Source: Rhodanobacter sp. (GTDB lineage Bacteria; Pseudomonadota; Gammaproteobacteria; Xanthomonadales; Rhodanobacteraceae). From it: 64,000 nucleotides of DNA. The stretch lies in NCBI GenBank assembly GCA_004322005.1, contig SCRF01000109.1, forward strand, positions 632 through 64,631. Reading direction: 5' to 3'. Shown piece by piece: positions 8,345-59,289 of this stretch. The position numbers and the translations under genes are program-made. How positions within the stretch are numbered: position 1 is the first letter of the stretch; each line of letters opens with the position of its first letter. The notes under the pieces were generated by a model. It saw nothing but the letters and a program-made list of their open reading frames with translations, searched no databases and was not told the DNA's origin.

Positions 8345-10708
8345 CTATAGCGGCGTCAGATGGGCATACGCGGCCACCAGCCACTTGCTGCCGGCACCTT
8401 CGAAATTCACCTGCAGGCGCATGTGCGCGCCGCTGCCTTCGGCACTGATCACCACGCCTTCGCCGAAGCTGGGGTGGCTGACCCGCTGGCCGAGTTTCAC
8501 CGGCAGGTCTTCCGCCAGCGAGGTGGATGCGCCATGGCGCGCCGCACCGCTGTAGAGCGGGCGGCTGACCTGCACGCGCGGGCGCACTTCGTCGATCAGT
8601 TCGCCCGGCATCTCGCCGAGAAAGCGCGACGGTCGCGCCAGCATCTCGGTACCGTGCATGCGGCGCGATTCGGCGTGGGTGACGATGAGTCTTTCGCGCG
8701 CGCGGGTGATGCCGACGTAGGCCAGCCGGCGCTCCTCTTCCAGCCGGCCTTCGTCGTCGACCGAACGCTGACTGGGAAACAGGCCCTCTTCCATGCCGAC
8801 CAGGAACACCACCGGAAATTCCAGCCCCTTGGCCGAATGCAGCGTCATCAGCTGCACGCAGTCGTCCCACGTCTCGCCCTGGTGCTCGCCGGCTTCCAGT
8901 GCCGCGTGCGACAGGAACGCCGACAGTTCGTTCAAACCCGTCTCGATGTCGTCAGGGGTCAGTTCGAAGCGGCTGGCGACGTTGATCAGTTCGTCCAGGT
9001 TTTCCACTCGCGATTCGGCGTTGCCGCGGCTGTCCTTCTCGTAGAAATCGCGCAGGCCGGTATGGGTGATCGTGTGGTCGATCTGTTCGGCGAGGGTGAG
9101 GCTCTGGGGACCGGGGACCAGGGACCGGGGACCGGCAGTGGGCAAGGCGTCGATGAGCTCGCGGGGTGTGGCTTCGCTGGAAGCGGCTTCTTCGGACGGT
9201 GCGATGGCCTCCGGGTCATCCGGTCCCCGGTCCCCGGTCCCCGGTCCCGCGAACGCACGCGCCAACTCCTCGATCAAGGCCAGAAACGCCTTCACCGTAT
9301 TCTTCGCGCGCCCGGCCAGTTCGCCGCCGGCCAGTTCGGTCAAGGCGGCTTCCCACATCGAGGTGTTCTGGCCGCGTGCGCGACGGCGCAGCACGTCCAG
9401 CGTGCGCTCGCCGATACCTCGCGCGGGTGTATTGACAGCCCGTTCGAATGCCGCATCATCATGCCGGTTCGCGGTAAGGCGAAGGTAGGCCAGGGCGTCC
9501 TTGACCTCGGCGCGATCGAAGAACCGCTGGCCGCCGTAGACGCGGTACTTGATGTTGCGCTGGGTCAGCTGTTCCTCGAAGTTGCGCGACTGTGCGTTGG
9601 AGCGGTACAGGATCGCGCAGTCTTTCGCGCTGCCCGGAGGTGAATCGTCGTGGCCGGCGATGAACTCGCGGATGCGCTCGATCACGAAGCGCGCCTCGTC
9701 CTGTTCGTTGTAGGCCGCGTACAGCGCGATGCGTTCGCCTTCGCCGCCGGCGGTCCACAGCTGCTTGCCCAGGCGCCCGCCGTTGTGCGCGATCACGCTG
9801 TTGGCGGCCTTGAGGATGGTCGCGGTGGAGCGGTAGTTCTGTTCCAGCTTGATCGTGCGGGCACCGGGGAAGTCGCGCAGGAACTGCTGCATGTTCTCGA
9901 CCTTGGCGCCGCGCCAGCCGTAGATCGACTGGTCGTCGTCGCCGACGGCGAACACTTGACCGGGACCGGTCCCCGGTCCCGGTCCCGCTCCAGCCCCAGA
10001 CAACACCCGGATCCACGCATACTGCAGCGTGTTGGTGTCCTGGAACTCGTCGATCAGCAGATGCCGCCAGCGCTGCTGGTAGTGCTCCAGCAGCGCCGGG
10101 TTCTTCAGCCACAACTCGTGCGCGCGCAGCAGCAGTTCGGCGAAGTCGACCAGCCCGGCGCGACGGCAGGCATCCTCGTAGGCCTGGTAGATCTGCACGA
10201 AGGTGCGGGTGACCGGATGGTCGCGGTGCTCGATGCTGCCCGGGCGTTTGCCCTCGTCCTTCCACTGGTTGATCTGCCAGCCGGCCTGGCGCGGCGGAAA
10301 CTTCGCCTCGTCCAGGCCCAGTCCGGCGACGACGCGCTTGACCAGCCGCAGCTGATCGTCGGCGTCGAGGATCTGGAAGGTCTCCGGCAACCCCGCCTCG
10401 CGCCAGTGCCGGCGCAGCAGGCGGTGGGCGATGCCGTGGAAGGTGCCGACGGTGAGCCCCTGGGTGCCGCCCGGAATCAGCGCGTCCAGCCGCGCGCGCA
10501 TCTCGCCGGCCGCCTTGTTGGTGAAGGTGACGGCGAGAATCGCCCATGGCGGTACGCGTTCAGCCTGGGTCAGCCAGCCGATCCGGTGGGTCAGGACGCG
10601 GGTCTTGCCGGAACCGGCGCCGGCCAGGATCAGGTAATGGCCGGGCGGGGCGCAGACCGCTTCACGCTGCGCGTCGTTGAGCGGGTCGATCAGGTGCGAG
10701 ACATCCAT
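8345..10708 (-). CDS. uvrD: DNA helicase II (UvrD)
   Basis: LNDAQREAV..AGAGSGKTRVL (Walker A), LIDEFQDTN, VGDDDQSIYGWRGA, and the C-terminus KWLVAAYAHL are collinear with E. coli UvrD. Two repeat-derived inserts interrupt the alignment. Confidence 0.95.
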   Translation of the reverse strand: MDVSHLIDPLNDAQREAVCAPPGHYLILAGAGSGKTRVLTHRIGWLTQAERVPPWAILAVTFTNKAAGEMRARLDALIPGGTQGLTVGTFHGIAHRLLRRHWREAGLPETFQILDADDQLRLVKRVVAGLGLDEAKFPPRQAGWQINQWKDEGKRPGSIEHRDHPVTRTFVQIYQAYEDACRRAGLVDFAELLLRAHELWLKNPALLEHYQQRWRHLLIDEFQDTNTLQYAWIRVLSGAGAGPGPGTGPGQVFAVGDDDQSIYGWRGAKVENMQQFLRDFPGARTIKLEQNYRSTATILKAANSVIAHNGGRLGKQLWTAGGEGERIALYAAYNEQDEARFVIERIREFIAGHDDSPPGSAKDCAILYRSNAQSRNFEEQLTQRNIKYRVYGGQRFFDRAEVKDALAYLRLTANRHDDAAFERAVNTPARGIGERTLDVLRRRARGQNTSMWEAALTELAGGELAGRAKNTVKAFLALIEELARAFAGPGTGDRGPDDPEAIAPSEEAASSEATPRELIDALPTAGPRSLVPGPQSLTLAEQIDHTITHTGLRDFYEKDSRGNAESRVENLDELINVASRFELTPDDIETGLNELSAFLSHAALEAGEHQGETWDDCVQLMTLHSAKGLEFPVVFLVGMEEGLFPSQRSVDDEGRLEEERRLAYVGITRARERLIVTHAESRRMHGTEMLARPSRFLGEMPGELIDEVRPRVQVSRPLYSGAARHGASTSLAEDLPVKLGQRVSHPSFGEGVVISAEGSGAHMRLQVNFEGAGSKWLVAAYAHLTPL
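9106..9248. repeat. GGGACCGG-type inverted repeat (29-30 bp arms, ~84 bp centre) inside uvrD, in frame
   Basis: Left arm 9106-9135 is ggggaccggggaccagggaccggggaccgg. Right arm 9220-9248 is its reverse complement with one mismatch. Confidence 0.85.
9958..9988. repeat. short GGGACCGGTCCC-type palindromic repeat inside uvrD, in frame
   Basis: gaccgggaccggtccccggtcccggtcccgc encodes AGPGPGTGPG, where E. coli UvrD has only about 4 residues (LAGDTGKV). Confidence 0.75.
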
Positions 10709-10999: not shown

Positions 11000-11169
11000 G
11001 AATGCCTCTCCTCGATGGATAGGTCGAGTATGCCGCGAGGTCATGTGCATAGAAAGTGCAGGTAAGAGCCACCCTGTGGGCGAAAACATGCTGCGATGCG
11101 GCCCGTGATCGCGCACAAGGTGCGCTCACAGCTCTGCGCCATGACGATCCGGGCAGAAGCCGATCCCCC

Positions 11170-11208
11170 AAAAAAAGACCCCGAAGGCCAGGGGGAGCCT
11201 TCGGGGTC
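11170..11208 (-). terminator. rho-independent terminator
   Basis: An 11-bp GC-rich stem (gaccccgaagg / ccttcggggtc) is followed on the minus strand by TTTTTTT. Confidence 0.75.
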
Positions 11209-11295
11209 GGTGGAGGCGAAACCCAGGGGAGAGGTTCGCGTCCGGTTGGCGGCCCAGGGAGGTGAGCCGGCCGCGGATGCCATTGCGTGCATCCG
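11170..11295 (-). ncRNA. candidate sX13-like small RNA (three stem-loops with C-rich loops plus terminator); 5' end approximate
   Basis: Minus-strand hairpins lie at 11249-11274 (loop ..CACCUCCCUG), 11216-11239 (loop CUCUCCCCUGGG) and 11177-11208 (loop CUCCCCCUGG), followed by U7. There is no credible ORF. Position is about 130-250 nt downstream of the polA stop. Confidence 0.5.
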
Positions 11296-11422: not shown

Positions 11423-14194
11423 TCAATGCGCCTCGTCCCAGTTCGCACCCACGCCCACATCGACCAGCAATGGCACCGCCAGTTCCGCCGCGCCTGACAT
11501 TCGTTCGATGACCGCGGCACGCACGCTGTCGACCGCGTCGACGCGCACCTCGAACACCAGCTCGTCGTGTACCTGCATCAGCATGTGCACGTCGTTGCGC
11601 CCGTTGATCCAGGCGGCCATGGCGATCATCGCGCGCTTGATGATGTCGGCCGCGGTGCCCTGCATCGGTGCATTCACCGCTGCGCGTTCGGCGCCCTGGC
11701 GCAGGCTCTGGTTGCGCGAGGCGAGGTTTTCCAGATACAGCCGCCGGCCGAACAGGGTCTCGACGTAGCCGTCGCGGTGCGCCTGCTCGCGCGTGGCGTC
11801 CATGTAGGCGCGCACGCCGGGGTAGCGCGCGAAGTAGCGCGCCATGTAATCGCCGGCCTCGCCGCGGTCGACGCCGAGCTGGCGGGCCAGTCCGAACGCG
11901 CTCATGCCGTACATCAGGCCGAAGTTGATCGCCTTGGCGGCACGGCGCTGATTGGTGGTGATTTCGTCCGGCGGCACACCGAACACTTCCGCCGCGGTGG
12001 CGCGATGCACGTCGCCGCCTTCGTGGAACGCGCGCAGCAGGCCCTCGTCGCCGGACAGGTGCGCCATGATGCGCAGCTCGATCTGCGAGTAGTCCGCCGC
12101 CAGCACCTGCCAGCCCGGCGGCGCGATGAAGGCCTGGCGGATGCGCCGGCCCTCCTCGGTACGCACCGGGATGTTCTGCAGGTTCGGGTCGGACGAGGAC
12201 AGCCGCCCGGTCGCCACCGCGCCCTGGTGATAGCTGGTGTGCACGCGGCCGGTGCGCGGGTTGACGATGCCGGCCAGCTTGTCGGTGTAGGTGGAACGCA
12301 GCTTGGCCAGGCCGCGATAGTCCAGGATCAGCCGCGGCAGCTCGTGTGTGTCGGCGATCGCTTCCAGGGCCTCCTCGTTGGTGGAGGGCTGGCCGGTCGG
12401 GGTTTTCAGCTTTGCCTTGAGGCCGAGTTCGTCGAACAGGATCGCCTGCAACTGCTTGGGCGAGTCCAGATTGAACTCGCGCCCTGCCGAGCCGAATGCC
12501 AGCTGCTGCAGTTCCAGCATCCGCTTGCCCAGTTGCTGGCTCTGCCGGCGCAGTTCGTCGCCGTCGATCAGCACGCCGTGCCGTTCCATCGCGGCCAGCA
12601 CCGGAACCAGCGGAATCTCGATCTCTTCGTAGACGCTGCGCAGCTTCGGCGCGCCCCGCAGCAAGGGCCACAGCGCGTGATGCAGGCGCAGGGTGACGTC
12701 GGCATCCTCGGCGGCATAGCGGCAGGCGGTATCCAGATCCACCTGCGAGAACGAAATCTGTTTCGCGCCCTTGCCGGTGACCTGCTCGTATTTGACCGTC
12801 TCGTAGCCGAGGTATTTGCGTGCCAGCGAATCCATGTCGTGGCGCGTGGCGGTGGCGTTCCACACGTAGGATTCGAGCATGCTGTCGTGGCGAAGCCCCT
12901 GCACGGCGATGCCGTAATGGCTGAGCACGTTGATGTCGTACTTGGCATGCTGGCCGAGCTTGGCTTTGGTGGTGTCCTCGAACAGCGGCTTGAGTGCGGC
13001 CAGCACGCTGTCGCGGTCGAGCTGCTCAGGCGCGCCGGGATAATCGTGGCCCAGCGGAATGTAGCAGGCCCGGCCCAGTTCCACCGCGAAGCTGATGCCG
13101 ACGATGTCCGCACGCATCGCGTCGATGCTGGTGGTTTCAGTGTCGAACGCGATCAGTTCGGCGCCGCGCAGTTTTTCCAGCCACGCATCGAAACGGGCCG
13201 GGGTAGTGACCAGTTCGTATTCGCCCGGCCCCCGTAGGAGCGCACCCTGTGCGCGAAGCTCTTGGGGCGATACTTCGGAGCTTTCGCTGGAGCTCTCGCC
13301 AGAGCTTTCGCCAGAGCTTTCGCGCACAGGGTGCGCTCCTACGGGGGCGGCGGGACCATCGAGCTCTTTCAGCGCCGCCTTGAACTCGTAACGGGTGTAC
13401 AGCTCGCGCAGCCGTGCGGTGTCTGCCTCGCGCCGGGCCAGGTCGGTGGGGCCGAATTCCAGCGGCACATCGGTCTTGATCGTCACCAGCTCGCGCGACA
13501 GCGGCAGCAGCGGCAGCGTGGCGCGCAGGCTCTCGCCGATCTTGCCGCCGATCCGGTCGGCGTTCGCGATCACGCCGTCCAGTGTGGTGTATTCGGTCAG
13601 CCATTTGGCGGCGGTTTTCGGGCCGCACTTGGGCACCCCAGGCACGTTGTCGATGGTATCGCCGGTAAGCGCGAGAAAATCGACGATCTGCTGCGGCCGC
13701 ACGCCGAATTTTTCCATCACCCCGGCGCTGTCGGTGATGGTGTTGCTCATGGTGTTGATGAGGGTCACGTGCGACCCCACCAGCTGCGCCATATCCTTGT
13801 CGCCGGTGGAGATCAGTACCTCGATGCCGAGTGCCTGCGCCTGCACGGCGAGCGTGCCGATCACGTCGTCGGCCTCGACCCCCGGCACGCGCAGGATCGG
13901 AAAACCGAGCGCGCCCACGATCGCCAGCATCGGTTCGACCTGCGCGCGCAGGTCGTCCGGCATCGGCGGCCGGTTCGCCTTGTACTGCTCGTACAAGACG
14001 TCGCGGAAGGTCGGGCCGGGAGCATCGCTGACGAAGGCGAGATAATCCGGGTTGGCCTTCAACGTCGCGCGCAGCATGTTGACCACGCCGAACAGCGCGC
14101 CGGTCGGTTCGCCGTGGGCATTGCTCAGCGGCGGCAGCGCATGGAAGGCGCGATACAGATAGGAAGAGCCGTCGATCAGTATGAGTTTGGCCAT
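11423..14194 (-). CDS. polA: DNA polymerase I
   Basis: The 5' nuclease (LILIDGSSYLYRAFHA), the 3'-5' exonuclease (IAFDTETTS) and the polymerase motifs (DYSQIELRIMAH, QVHDELVFE) are all present. An alternative ATG lies at 14209. Confidence 0.95.
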   Translation of the reverse strand: MAKLILIDGSSYLYRAFHALPPLSNAHGEPTGALFGVVNMLRATLKANPDYLAFVSDAPGPTFRDVLYEQYKANRPPMPDDLRAQVEPMLAIVGALGFPILRVPGVEADDVIGTLAVQAQALGIEVLISTGDKDMAQLVGSHVTLINTMSNTITDSAGVMEKFGVRPQQIVDFLALTGDTIDNVPGVPKCGPKTAAKWLTEYTTLDGVIANADRIGGKIGESLRATLPLLPLSRELVTIKTDVPLEFGPTDLARREADTARLRELYTRYEFKAALKELDGPAAPVGAHPVRESSGESSGESSSESSEVSPQELRAQGALLRGPGEYELVTTPARFDAWLEKLRGAELIAFDTETTSIDAMRADIVGISFAVELGRACYIPLGHDYPGAPEQLDRDSVLAALKPLFEDTTKAKLGQHAKYDINVLSHYGIAVQGLRHDSMLESYVWNATATRHDMDSLARKYLGYETVKYEQVTGKGAKQISFSQVDLDTACRYAAEDADVTLRLHHALWPLLRGAPKLRSVYEEIEIPLVPVLAAMERHGVLIDGDELRRQSQQLGKRMLELQQLAFGSAGREFNLDSPKQLQAILFDELGLKAKLKTPTGQPSTNEEALEAIADTHELPRLILDYRGLAKLRSTYTDKLAGIVNPRTGRVHTSYHQGAVATGRLSSSDPNLQNIPVRTEEGRRIRQAFIAPPGWQVLAADYSQIELRIMAHLSGDEGLLRAFHEGGDVHRATAAEVFGVPPDEITTNQRRAAKAINFGLMYGMSAFGLARQLGVDRGEAGDYMARYFARYPGVRAYMDATREQAHRDGYVETLFGRRLYLENLASRNQSLRQGAERAAVNAPMQGTAADIIKRAMIAMAAWINGRNDVHMLMQVHDELVFEVRVDAVDSVRAAVIERMSGAAELAVPLLVDVGVGANWDEAH
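13229..13347. repeat. GTAG-type REP inverted dimer with an internal 4 x 12 bp tandem array, inside polA, in frame
   Basis: Arms are cccccgtaggagcgcaccctgtgcgcgaa (13229-13257) and ttcgcgcacagggtgcgctcctacggggg (13319-13347). The 12-mers gagctttcgctg/gagctctcgcca/gagctttcgcca/gagctttcgcgc span 13278-13325. Confidence 0.9.
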
Positions 14195-14287
14195 GCGCCA
14201 TTCTCGCATGCACGCGCGAATCGGCGCGCTTCACGAACGCTCGGCGGGCGCACTGCTATGCTTTGCTTCCCGATCGAGGTTGCCGCC

Positions 14288-15553: not shown

Positions 15554-15624
15554 GTAGGAGCGCACCTTGTGCGCGATGCTCTTCGTCACGTGACGAAAAG
15601 CTCGCGCACAGGGTGCGCTCCTAC
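15554..15624. repeat. GTAG-type REP inverted dimer
   Basis: gtaggagcgcaccttgtgcgcgatgctcttcgtcacgtgacgaaaagctcgcgcacagggtgcgctcctac. Confidence 0.85.
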
Positions 15625-18719: not shown

Positions 18720-19733
18720 TCAGCGACGCCGACCGCTGATCCGCACCCAGTCCTCGCGGCGATCCACGCGCAGCTCGTCAAACCATTCCGCGTAATGCTG
18801 CAGCAGTTCATCCTGCTGGCCGGCGAGGATGCCGGAGATCGCGAACGGTGCGCGTGGCTTGGCGGCGGCAGCGAACGTCGGCGCCAGCTCGAGCAACGGG
18901 CCGGCGAGGATGTTCGCGAGAAACACGTCGGCAGGCGACGTGCATGGATGCACTAGTGTCGCGGGCGCAGGATGCGCAGGAGCGACCGACGTGCATGGAT
19001 GCACTAGTGTCGCGGGCGCAGGATGCGCAGGAGCGACTTGCCCGCAAAAATCCTGCGGGAGATACAGCGCCAGCCGTTCGGCGACGCCATTGCGTTGGGC
19101 GTTGTCGGCCGAGGCAGTCAGTGCCTGCGGATCGTTGTCGATGCCCACGGCACTGGCCGCACCGAGCTTCAGCGCGGCGATCGCCAGAATGCCCGAGCCG
19201 CAGCCGTAGTCGATCACACTCTTGCCGGCCAGCTCGAGCCCGTCGAGCCATTCCAGGCACAGCGCGGTGGTCGGATGCGTGCCGCTGCCGAAGGCCAGGC
19301 CCGGGTCGAGCCGGACCACCACCGGCGCGTCATCGCCGTTCTCGCTGTGCGTGGGCGGCTCGATGTTCCACGGATAGATCCACAGGCGCCGGCCAAACGG
19401 CATCGGCCGGTACTGGTCCATCCACACCCGTTCCCAGTTCTGGTCGGCCACTTCGCGAAACTGCAGCTGATCGGGTTCGAGCCATGGCAGCAGTTCACCG
19501 AGTGTTTCGCTGAGACCGCGGCGATCGACGTGTTCGTCGAACAGTGCCTGCAGGGTGATCGTCGGCCACAGCGGCAATTCGCCCACGCCGGGCTCGAAGA
19601 TCGCCTGTTCGTCCGGCGTCTGCGCATCGGCGTCCTGCAGGGTGATCGACAGCGCGCCCAGATCGTTCAGCGCGTCTTCGACAGCGGGTTGCTGAGTGGC
19701 GCGGACAGTGAGGGAAAGTTCAAGCCATGGCAT
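18720..19733 (-). CDS. prmA: ribosomal protein L11 methyltransferase
   Basis: MPWLELSL.., DPGLAFGSGTHPTT, DYGCGSGILAIAA and ANILAGPL are collinear with E. coli PrmA except for a 34-aa duplicated insert. Confidence 0.9.
   Translation of the reverse strand: MPWLELSLTVRATQQPAVEDALNDLGALSITLQDADAQTPDEQAIFEPGVGELPLWPTITLQALFDEHVDRRGLSETLGELLPWLEPDQLQFREVADQNWERVWMDQYRPMPFGRRLWIYPWNIEPPTHSENGDDAPVVVRLDPGLAFGSGTHPTTALCLEWLDGLELAGKSVIDYGCGSGILAIAALKLGAASAVGIDNDPQALTASADNAQRNGVAERLALYLPQDFCGQVAPAHPAPATLVHPCTSVAPAHPAPATLVHPCTSPADVFLANILAGPLLELAPTFAAAAKPRAPFAISGILAGQQDELLQHYAEWFDELRVDRREDWVRISGRRR
18937..19038. repeat. perfect-but-one 2 x 51 bp tandem duplication inside prmA, in frame
   Basis: The unit gacgtgcatggatgcactagtgtcgcgggcgcaggatgcgcaggagcgacc occurs at 18937-18987 and again at 18988-19038 (last base differs). 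It encodes VAPAHPAPATLVHPCTS twice. Confidence 0.9.
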
Positions 19734-19752: not shown

Positions 19753-19831
19753 GTAGGAGCGCACCCTGTGCGCGAAAAGCTCTGATCGAAACGTCCGTAA
19801 AGAGCTTTTCGCGCACAGGGTGCGCTCCTAC
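19753..19831. repeat. GTAG-type REP inverted dimer (prmA-accC intergenic)
   Basis: gtaggagcgcaccctgtgcgcgaaaagctct...agagcttttcgcgcacagggtgcgctcctac. Confidence 0.9.
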
Positions 19832-21207: not shown

Positions 21208-21223
21208 GGGGAAAACTCCGGAG

Positions 21224-21314
21224 GCCGGGACCGGGGACCGGGAACCAGGGACCGGAAGAGCAAAAGCGGCGCGGCTCTTGGCTTTTCCTGGTCCCTGGTT
21301 CCCGGTTCCCGGCC
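21224..21314. repeat. GGGACCGG-type imperfect inverted repeat filling the accB-accC spacer
   Basis: The arm gccgggaccggggaccgggaaccagggaccgg pairs with cctggtccctggttcccggttcccggcc. A central mini-hairpin aagagc..gctctt is present. The element begins 5 nt from the accC Shine-Dalgarno. Confidence 0.8.
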
Positions 21315-21324
21315 CCGCCCAAAA

Positions 21325-25784: not shown

Positions 25785-25985
25785 GTAGGAGCGCACCCTG
25801 TGCGCGAATACCTTTATCCGAGCGCCCCCGCCTCGCCACCCGCGTAGGAGCCCGCTCGCGGGCGATGCTCTGATAGCGTGGCCAGAAGAGCATCGCCCGC
25901 AAGCGGGCTCCTACTGGTGGTGGGTGCGAGCCGATGCCGAGCGTCGCGCCGACGTTCGCTTTATCGCCCGCAAGCGGGCTCCTGC
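25785..25985. repeat. cluster of GTAG-type REPs (solo, inverted dimer, solo)
   Basis: Solo gtaggagcgcaccctgtgcgcga at 25785-25807. Dimer gtaggagcccgctcgcgggcgatgctct..agagcatcgcccgcaagcgggctcctac at 25844-25914. Solo atcgcccgcaagcgggctcctgc at 25963-25985. Confidence 0.85.
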
Positions 25986-34289: not shown

Positions 34290-34359
34290 GTAGGAGCCCG
34301 CTCGCGGGCGATGCTCTGGGGTCGCGCGATCAGGGCATCGCCTGCGAGCGGGCTCCTGC
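34290..34359. repeat. GTAG-type REP inverted dimer
   Basis: gtaggagcccgctcgcgggcgatgctct..gcatcgcctgcgagcgggctcctgc. It overlaps the last ~10 codons of the 34330-35322 CDS. Confidence 0.85.
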
Positions 34360-59214: not shown

Positions 59215-59289
59215 GTAGGAGCGCGCTTGCGCGCGATGCTCTTGTCGATGAACATCCGCGGAGAGCATCGCGCGCAAGCGCGCTCCTAC
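59215..59289. repeat. GTAG-type REP inverted dimer
   Basis: gtaggagcgcgcttgcgcgcgatgctct..agagcatcgcgcgcaagcgcgctcctac. Confidence 0.85.

Follow-up and report, generated by a model that had tools for sequence, protein, structure and literature searches.

Inverted doublets of repetitive extragenic palindromic sequences (REPs) that form hairpins, known as REPINs, have been described by Bertels & Rainey (2011, PMC3116915), their arms being more conserved than their spacers. For the REPs flanking the genes of REP-associated tyrosine transposases (RAYTs) in Xanthomonas, Nunvar et al. (2010, PMC2817692) gave the consensus sequences GTAGGAGCGCACCyGGGCGCGAC (X. axonopodis) and GTAGGAGCGCGCTCGCGCGCGA (X. 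campestris). The present analysis concerns a doublet of this kind that lies within polA, the gene of DNA polymerase I (Pol I), in a stretch of 64 kb from Rhodanobacter sp. (GenBank assembly GCA_004322005.1, contig SCRF01000109.1), referred to below as the window. It is probably a GTAG-class REPIN that was inserted in frame in a permissive tether of the enzyme and has been inherited vertically in the clade to which the window belongs.

Intragenic REPs have precedents. Di Nocera, De Gregorio & Rocco (2013, BMC Genomics 14:522, PMC3733652) found them in several species, many in genes of replication and repair, and considered such inserts perhaps neutral, being located in flexible linkers; they also noted that REP families are known in genomes without RAYT. 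Their supplementary table contains a REP dimer in Pol I of Rhodopseudomonas palustris (RPE_4821, residues 338-367 of 1012) and another in Micavibrio Pol I (MICA_2230, residues 304-325 of 942), together with UvrD and other repair proteins. Judged by residue position only, both Pol I dimers fit the interdomain region occupied in the window. The Rickettsia palindromic elements (RPEs; Ogata et al. 2000) are, by the accounts given in PMC3733652 and PMC3184786, selfish palindromes inserted in frame in genes that still function.

A REP doublet read in frame in polA

The gene and the element within it comprise the following features, numbered by position in the window.

11423..14209, minus strand: polA (DNA polymerase I) coding sequence, from the open reading frame (ORF) and its translation; Pfam domains 5_3_exonuc_N, 5_3_exonuc, DNA_pol_A_exo1, DNA_polI_exo1 and DNA_pol_A
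13228..13348, no strand assigned: whole REPIN (REP doublet hairpin), encoding 41 residues, 283-323 of the 923-residue Pol I
13234..13256, plus strand: REP unit 1, core GTAGGAGCGCACCCTGTGCGCGA, read on the gene strand as ..RAQGALL..
13320..13342, minus (gene) strand: REP unit 2, same core GTAGGAGCGCACCCTGTGCGCGA, read as VGAHPVR
13278..13323, no strand assigned: 12-nucleotide (nt) array of 3.8 copies, gene-strand unit AGCTCTGGCGAA, from Tandem Repeats Finder (TRF) and direct repeat family D1

An earlier note on this DNA had described two arms of 29 nt (13229-13257 and 13319-13347) as exact reverse complements. They are, and the match runs one base further, giving a perfect inverted repeat with 30-nt arms (13228-13257 and 13319-13348) and a 61-nt spacer; a repeat finder reported 37 nt at 92% and the same 61 nt of spacing. 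Each arm contains one copy of the 23-nt GTAG-type REP GTAGGAGCGCACCCTGTGCGCGA, which shares its head and tail with the Xanthomonas RAYT-flanking consensus sequences (PMC2817692). Both units begin with GTAGG, so that the GTAG head typical of this REP class stands at the unit end, and the core has a short stem of its own (6 bp, GCGCAC/GTGCGC, with a 3-nt loop), which is paired in 92.9% of cells across 14 distinct arm sets. The two inverted REPs with the short spacer between them form the long hairpin that defines a REPIN: the 147-nt stretch 13215-13361 that spans it folds at -104 kcal/mol as RNA and at -64.6 kcal/mol as DNA, with z = -11.9 against shuffles in both cases. By structure and by family the polA element is therefore a REPIN, but an atypically sited one, as it is not extragenic. 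Matches of REPINs to microRNA precursor models of Rfam, obtained at a permissive threshold, were far below the gathering scores and were discarded as spurious matches to long hairpins.

The polA frame stays open through the palindrome, with no stop codon. In the numbering of the 923-residue protein from MAKLIL, Pfam places 5_3_exonuc at 165-259 and DNA_pol_A_exo1 at 326-512, and the palindrome-encoded residues 283-323 make up most of the stretch between these two domains; the earlier note, which located the element in frame and precisely in the linker that joins the 5' nuclease to the 3'-5' exonuclease, is thus borne out. In E. coli Pol I this region is the protease-sensitive tether between the small 5'-nuclease fragment and the Klenow fragment. 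Whole REPs are contained in an ORF of known function that is intact on both sides of them, and relatives whose polA linker has no palindrome exist, for example L014, L016, L017 and P0126. An AlphaFold2 model of the protein, built on a 41-sequence alignment, was poor overall (mean predicted local distance difference test score, pLDDT, 54; predicted template modelling score, pTM, 0.37) and is not used as evidence; the linker (281-319) has pLDDT below 50 in this model, but so do many folded regions. The first ATG of the ORF, at 14209, adds MREWR ahead of MAKLIL. The closest relatives are called from MPKLIL or MAKLIL, and the true start is probably the ATG at 14194, which gives 923 residues.

The REP of the polA element is also found at three further places in the window.

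15554..15624, no strand assigned: intergenic REPIN of the same REP family, arms 15554-15577 and 15601-15624
19753..19831, no strand assigned: intergenic REPIN of the same REP family, with 31-nt perfect arms and a 17-nt loop
25785..25808, plus strand: single intergenic REP of the same family, adjoining a REPIN of a second GTAG family at 25844-25914

The REP 24-mer GTAGGAGCGCACCCTGTGCGCGAA, with at most 3 mismatches, matches 7 times in the window (13234(+), 13319(-), 15554(+), 15601(-), 19753(+), 19808(-) and 25785(+)), against 0.00 expected from 100 shuffles. The polA doublet and the copies at 15554, 19753 and 25785 accordingly belong to one family, as had been claimed. A degenerate eighth copy stands at 11109, so that the 64 kb hold 7 or 8 copies at 5 places, all intergenic save the polA pair. 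The intergenic doublets 15554/15601 and 19753/19808 are convergent, with spacers of 17-26 nt bounded by GCTCT...AGAGC, and these inner ends are common to them and the polA element.

Two further families of GTAG REPINs, GTAGGAGCGCGCTTGCGCGCGAT and GTAGGAGCCCGCTCGCGGGCGAT, occur between genes of the window (59215-59289; 25844-25914 with 25963-25983; 34292-34357), so the genome holds several REP families. The first of these sequences is almost the published X. campestris REP.

The element in close relatives

Relatives of the locus were collected by a genome scan with one genome per species, which gave 80 polA loci with best matches in Rhodanobacter, Dyella, Luteibacter, other Rhodanobacteraceae and Lysobacterales, and by a search with the full-length protein, which gave 120 proteins at 85-94% identity, mostly from Rhodanobacter. 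A protein search with the 240-residue linker region alone returned only fragments of at most about 420 residues, the best-scoring of them no more than 67% identical, and was of no use for comparing close relatives.

In the closest relatives, L081 (P0121), L082/L083 (P0122) and L084 (P0124), the whole Pol I is 94, 93 and 91% identical to that of the window. Outside the linker, the proteins of L081, L082 and L084 are 93-96% identical to it and the four-fold-degenerate sites 85-89%. All three share the doublet, its codon position and the spacer tail ...GGTATCGCCCCAAGAGC... with the window, and the insertion therefore predates the split of these lineages. Many further lineages of Rhodanobacter and Dyella have the family A REP, as the REP of the polA element is called below, at the same place in polA. 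For the intergenic copies at 15554 and 19753 there is no counterpart in the loci of L082 to L084; because these loci hold the polA copy only, the latter is older than those two intergenic copies.

Repeats break assemblies, and the partial metagenome polA proteins P0107, P0111 and P0074 end or begin within the REP doublet, which suggests that contigs break at this multi-copy repeat. An assembly artefact as the source of the palindrome itself is nonetheless virtually untenable, as the frame is intact and the element occurs at the same codon position in three independent close assemblies and in about 20 more distant ones. Misassembly, the objection foreseen in the earlier note, is thereby ruled out. 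In practice, the element probably breaks metagenome assemblies and gene calls within polA, and where polA is called as truncated in Rhodanobacter bins, an assembly artefact may be the cause.

The copy in the window differs from its orthologues at the outer flank on the gene-5' side, where five bases have changed and now read CCCCC, complementing the GGGGG beyond the other arm. A single inner base has changed too, and through the flank and inner changes the perfect stem has grown from 23 to 30 nt. This would be the outcome expected of conversion from another copy or of hairpin-templated correction. In P0198 and P0227 / L105, an insertion of 8 residues (SLPRTGFG or SLPRTGSG) splits the second REP arm (RAQ/.../GALL).

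The 12-nt array is placed by TRF at 13278-13323 (period 12, 3.8 copies, 88% matches, score 71, unit GAGCTTTCGCCA). Its description as four copies derived from the inner arm end was correct, though the copies are imperfect. The unit is composed of the start of the REPIN spacer (AGCTCT) and a repeat of the arm end (GCGAA). Read on the gene strand, the array is GTGCGCGAA-AGCTCTGGCGAA-AGCTCTGGCGAG-AGCTCCAGCGAA-AGCTCCGAAGTA, translated as (E)SSG-(E)SSG-(E)SSS-(E)SS, i.e. (E-S-S-G)n. It is because of this array that the polA spacer is long compared with those of the intergenic doublets; minus the extra units it would measure about 25-37 nt, similar to the intergenic copies. The number of units is 4 in the window, 3 in L082, 2 in L081 and 2 in L084, so the length of the array varies among close relatives, as had been surmised. 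In the metagenomic relative L099 there are about 3 units, in degenerate form. Head-to-tail units with a length that is a multiple of 3 and a copy number that differs between lineages are characteristic of slipped-strand coding repeats.

Conservation of the arms

In 22 family A loci, a set picked by arm similarity, the 46 arm bases have a mean pairwise identity of 0.955, and at the 12 four-fold-degenerate positions within the arms it is 0.936; at the four-fold sites of flanking polA it is 0.740. A group of 8 lineages with homologous 33-nt spacers shows the excess of arm over spacer conservation known from REPINs, with arms 0.974 and spacers 0.555 identical. When a clade is defined by spacer homology alone (the window, L081, L082, L084 and L099, five related sequences), variation affects 5 of the 46 columns of the arms but 42% of the four-fold columns (binomial P = 3e-6).

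Composition at the arms' four-fold positions is also distinct, with a G+C of 0.515, against 0.933 in polA. The arms keep the rare A/T-ending codons GTA, GGA, CCT, GCA, GGT and CTA, and since these are kept against a strong G+C bias, selection on the peptide is not the explanation. The peptides VGAHPVR(E/D) and RAQGALL do recur in many relatives, as they would if the Pol I linker contained a conserved protein motif that was palindromic in its DNA by chance. This is very improbable, however, for the same 23-mer is present in intergenic DNA in both orientations, neither the four-fold identity nor the codon choice of the arms is accounted for by selection on the peptide, and the linkers of many relatives are quite different. 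The relatives that keep VGAHPVR...RAQGALL also keep the palindrome, and those without the palindrome have unrelated or visibly decayed linker peptides; a peptide conserved independently of the palindrome, which the earlier note had named as evidence against its reading, was thus not encountered.

The few changes in the two arms are partly matched. The head is altered from GTAGG to GCAGG (T to C) in both arms at six loci (L090, L084, L092, L098, L102 and L113), among them L084, an orthologue of the window's locus, and in a single arm at two loci (L010 and L095). Within the REPs' own stems there are two compensatory changes, a score reached by 2 of 500 shuffles; for the long stem the observed score was reached by 5 of 500. 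These covariation counts rest on few events and the tool has a stated false-positive rate for related sequences, so they are suggestive only. One arm of L090 contains a compensatory change of C-G to T-A within the REP's own stem.

Such conservation might indicate that the hairpin is itself functional in polA, a stem in messenger RNA or single-stranded DNA being kept by selection at the domain boundary. The roles proposed are ribosome pausing that lets the 5' nuclease fold first, an RNase site, uncoupled expression of the two halves, and docking of a REP transposase or REP-binding protein. The great stability of the RNA stem is in keeping with this, as are the conservation of the arms far beyond synonymous sites and against the third-position G+C bias, the paired head changes and the compensatory changes in the REP stems, the lengthened perfect stem of the window, and the presence of some palindrome family at the site in about a quarter of lineages. 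Many close relatives, however, have no palindrome or a decayed one together with an intact polA, so the hairpin is dispensable, and a function specific to polA is less likely for this reason. The families also differ greatly in stems and peptides, the covariation comprises very few events, and conservation of arms is a general property of REPINs for which a role in polA need not be invoked (PMC3116915). A functional hairpin is accordingly considered unlikely.

Palindrome families in the Pol I linker

The genome scan, a metagenome scan and fetched contigs together gave 145 distinct polA linker DNAs from Rhodanobacteraceae and relatives. An inverted repeat score of at least 14 was reached by 37 of these linkers (25.5%) and by 0 of 717 control segments of the same length from the same polA genes, whose highest score was 12. 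At least six unrelated types of palindrome occupy the linker.

Family A: the REP of the window's polA element
Family B: another REP of GTAG type, GTRGGAGCGRCTTCAGYCGCGA, translated as GSDFSRD...IATEVAPT
Family C: heptamers, GGGACTC or GGGGACC, arranged in inverted arrays
Family D: CCCCTCTCCC...GGGAGAGGGG, read as PLGRGAGGEG...PQPLSRGERG
Family E: in L026 only
Family F: CGTC-like type, in L027 and L031

Among the 121 closest Pol I proteins, 34 contain both family A peptides, 21 belong to family B, 2 to family D and 64 to neither. Clear decay series are visible, from a 20-residue form to AGAAPGREPADV...RAQGALL and on to AGTPGTREPATDD...LIPDARPS, the latter two being in the last group. In a neighbour-joining tree based on p-distances, linkers of type A, of type B and with none are interspersed. 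This distribution implies repeated gain, replacement or loss, in a tree too weak for the events to be counted. A scan by regular expression for REP-type peptides in the linkers of 120 polA fragments from the linker-region search, mostly from other gamma- and betaproteobacteria, gave one match only, to a Rhodanobacter-type fragment starting inside the element; by this crude test the hot spot is not shown outside the family Rhodanobacteraceae.

The diversity of the linker palindromes suggests a second explanation for the arms: the linker might be a target-specific hot spot that receives repeated independent insertions or replacements, the conservation of the arms then merely reflecting youth. 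Besides the at least six families at one site and their interspersion on the tree, this is favoured by the family A spacer groups, which cannot be aligned with one another, by the near-constant left boundary, 3 to 5 residues past ...LKELD in Rhodanobacter and Dyella, and by uvrD, where a like turnover of families is seen at one site. Within the spacer groups, however, the spacers are homologous but diverged (0.555 in the 8 lineages) while the arms remain at 0.974, and one spacer is common to the clade of the window, whose lineages have four-fold identities of 85-89%; these copies are therefore old and inherited. The decay series is a further objection, and the neighbour-joining tree is not robust. 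Youth through repeated insertion is therefore regarded as a minor possibility, better placed than a functional hairpin.

Origin and maintenance of the element

The reading considered probable is that a REPIN of the RAYT-associated class, as known in Xanthomonas and Pseudomonas, would have been inserted in frame in the unstructured tether that connects the 5' nuclease with the 3'-5' exonuclease and would since have been translated as most of that tether. The insertion would be tolerated because the tether mainly needs length and flexibility, and the peptide may thus be neutral. As the common spacer suggests, the insertion would predate the divergence of the window's lineage from its closest relatives. 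The spacer would then have drifted freely, by neutral evolution, and replication slippage between repeated GCGAA-AGCTC motifs may have amplified the 12-nt unit, adding Ser/Gly/Glu tetrapeptides to a total of 2 to 4 units. The 23-nt arms would have stayed near-invariant, likely through a process acting on the whole REP family or on the hairpin and not through selection on the peptide; the arms might be converted or replaced from other copies, corrected with the hairpin as template, or selected in connection with recognition by the transposase.

Several points weigh against this account. The choice of the 22 loci by arm similarity inflates their arm identity, and decayed copies exist (L105, L107, L120 and L137); the test by spacer homology is free of this bias, but includes only five related sequences. 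The conservation of the arms fits a functional hairpin selected in polA equally well as it fits gene conversion or replacement. The 22-kb flanks from L082 to L084 contained no further copy of the polA element's REP, and in those genomes a donor for gene conversion is therefore hypothetical. Likewise, the 64-kb window contained no RAYT gene in a scan for HUH and NPV motifs and a Pfam search of 20 mid-sized ORFs, and mobilisation by RAYT in this genome is an unproven hypothesis. The proposed disorder of the linker rests mainly on the domain limits and on composition, and translation of the insert would follow from conservation of the frame in more than 100 orthologues.

A bolder proposal is that the Pol I tether is a preferred and actively maintained harbour for palindromic mobile elements, with the hairpin selected at the level of nucleic acid. 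This seems improbable. If true, the hairpin might serve the expression of polA or the co-translational folding of its product, or the site might shelter a master copy from which REPINs are reseeded, and colonised repair genes in the neighbourhood, such as uvrD, might share the explanation. The positionally fixed REPIN of polA, with its built-in neutral spacer, would then provide a direct measure of what maintains REPs.

Should the element have arisen by insertion as proposed, a selfish palindrome would have become the bulk of a domain linker in a core enzyme of repair and replication, and would have been lengthened by slippage of its own motif. This would be a clear small case of coding sequence born from mobile DNA. 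The contrast between arms and spacer offers a natural test bed for deciding between selection, gene conversion and replacement as the process that keeps REPINs.

Other repeats in the window

The adjacent gene uvrD (8345-10708, minus strand) also contains an in-frame palindrome. It is an inverted array of GGGGACC heptamers with 29-nt arms at 9107-9135 and 9220-9248, 97% complementary, read as ..AGPGTGDRGPDDPEAIAPSEEAASSEATPRELIDALPTAGPRSLVPGPQ...; at this site L082 has a shorter version and L084 a palindrome of a different family (PLSP..GEGRGEG..). A second, small in-frame palindrome of the GGGACCG type is located at about 9959-10003 of the window, within uvrD, and is read as GAGPGPGTGPG; L082 and L084 are 4 residues shorter there, without such a repeat. 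The intergenic hairpin 21223-21320 consists of inverted GGGACC(G) heptamer arrays, the type of the uvrD insert and of the polA linkers of L006, L036 and L129.

In prmA (L11 methyltransferase, 18720-19733, minus strand) a 51-nt unit is duplicated in tandem and in frame at 18927-19049, so that VAPAHPAPATLVHPCTS occurs twice; this unit is present in two copies in the window, in one in L084 and in none in L082. The unit includes small palindromes; its upstream edge looks, on the opposite strand, like the head of a GTAG REP that has decayed.

Downstream of polA, 11172-11284 (minus strand) matches the Rfam model RF02232 (small RNA sX13 of Xanthomonadaceae) over its full length. The match is weak (40.8 bits, below the gathering score of 50; E = 6.5e-5), and is followed by a terminator-like hairpin and a T run. 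In relatives, a 72-residue ORF is annotated at the equivalent position, perhaps through a miscall.

Comparison with known systems

With the REPINs and RAYT-associated REPs the polA element shares the GTAG head, the inverted pair with a short spacer, the long hairpin and the higher conservation of arms over spacer. REPINs, however, have been defined and counted in extragenic space, whereas the copy in the window is intragenic, presumably translated, and without a RAYT within the 64 kb.

The 12-nt array resembles the tandem coding repeats that vary by slipped-strand mispairing in having a unit that is a multiple of three, a copy number that varies between close lineages and a low-complexity product of Ser, Gly and Glu. 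It differs from them in being seeded by the arm end of a mobile element and in being located in the linker of a housekeeping enzyme, not in a surface or phase-variable gene. The variation known in the array is between lineages, the closest polA protein being 94% identical.

The likeness to the RPEs, in so far as these are portrayed in the papers that cite them, may be one of analogy only: both are in-frame palindromic inserts, the RPEs typically at permissive surface positions. The RPEs are of an unrelated sequence family and host, and RPE-1 is longer (about 105-146 bp). The GTAG head and the match to the Xanthomonas REP consensus would place the window's element outside them.

The nearest precedents are the cases of Di Nocera et al. 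(PMC3733652), in which, as here, a REP dimer lies wholly within a known ORF and is read in frame; uvrD of the window also carries an insert. Since dimers in Pol I were catalogued in 2013 and about a quarter of the linkers in the family have a strong palindrome, the element is less unusual than the earlier note had supposed. That the polymerase is essential, as the note has it, is an assumption where this organism is concerned. The published Pol I cases are CGTC-type REPs of alphaproteobacteria, whereas that of the window is of GTAG type in a gammaproteobacterium (Rhodanobacteraceae). Reuse of the site by several families, conservation of orthologous arms at the nucleotide level and an array seeded by the arm end are not described in that paper. 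Beyond the 2013 catalogue, one tether is seen to be reused by at least six palindrome families in one bacterial family, inserts are seen to decay to ordinary linker, and orthologous arms remain near-unchanged while the spacer within the same segment, probably disordered, drifts. In-frame REP dimers in Pol I are thus already known, and to these the window adds the GTAG type in Rhodanobacteraceae, the reuse of a hot spot, the maintenance of the arms and an array seeded by the arm end.

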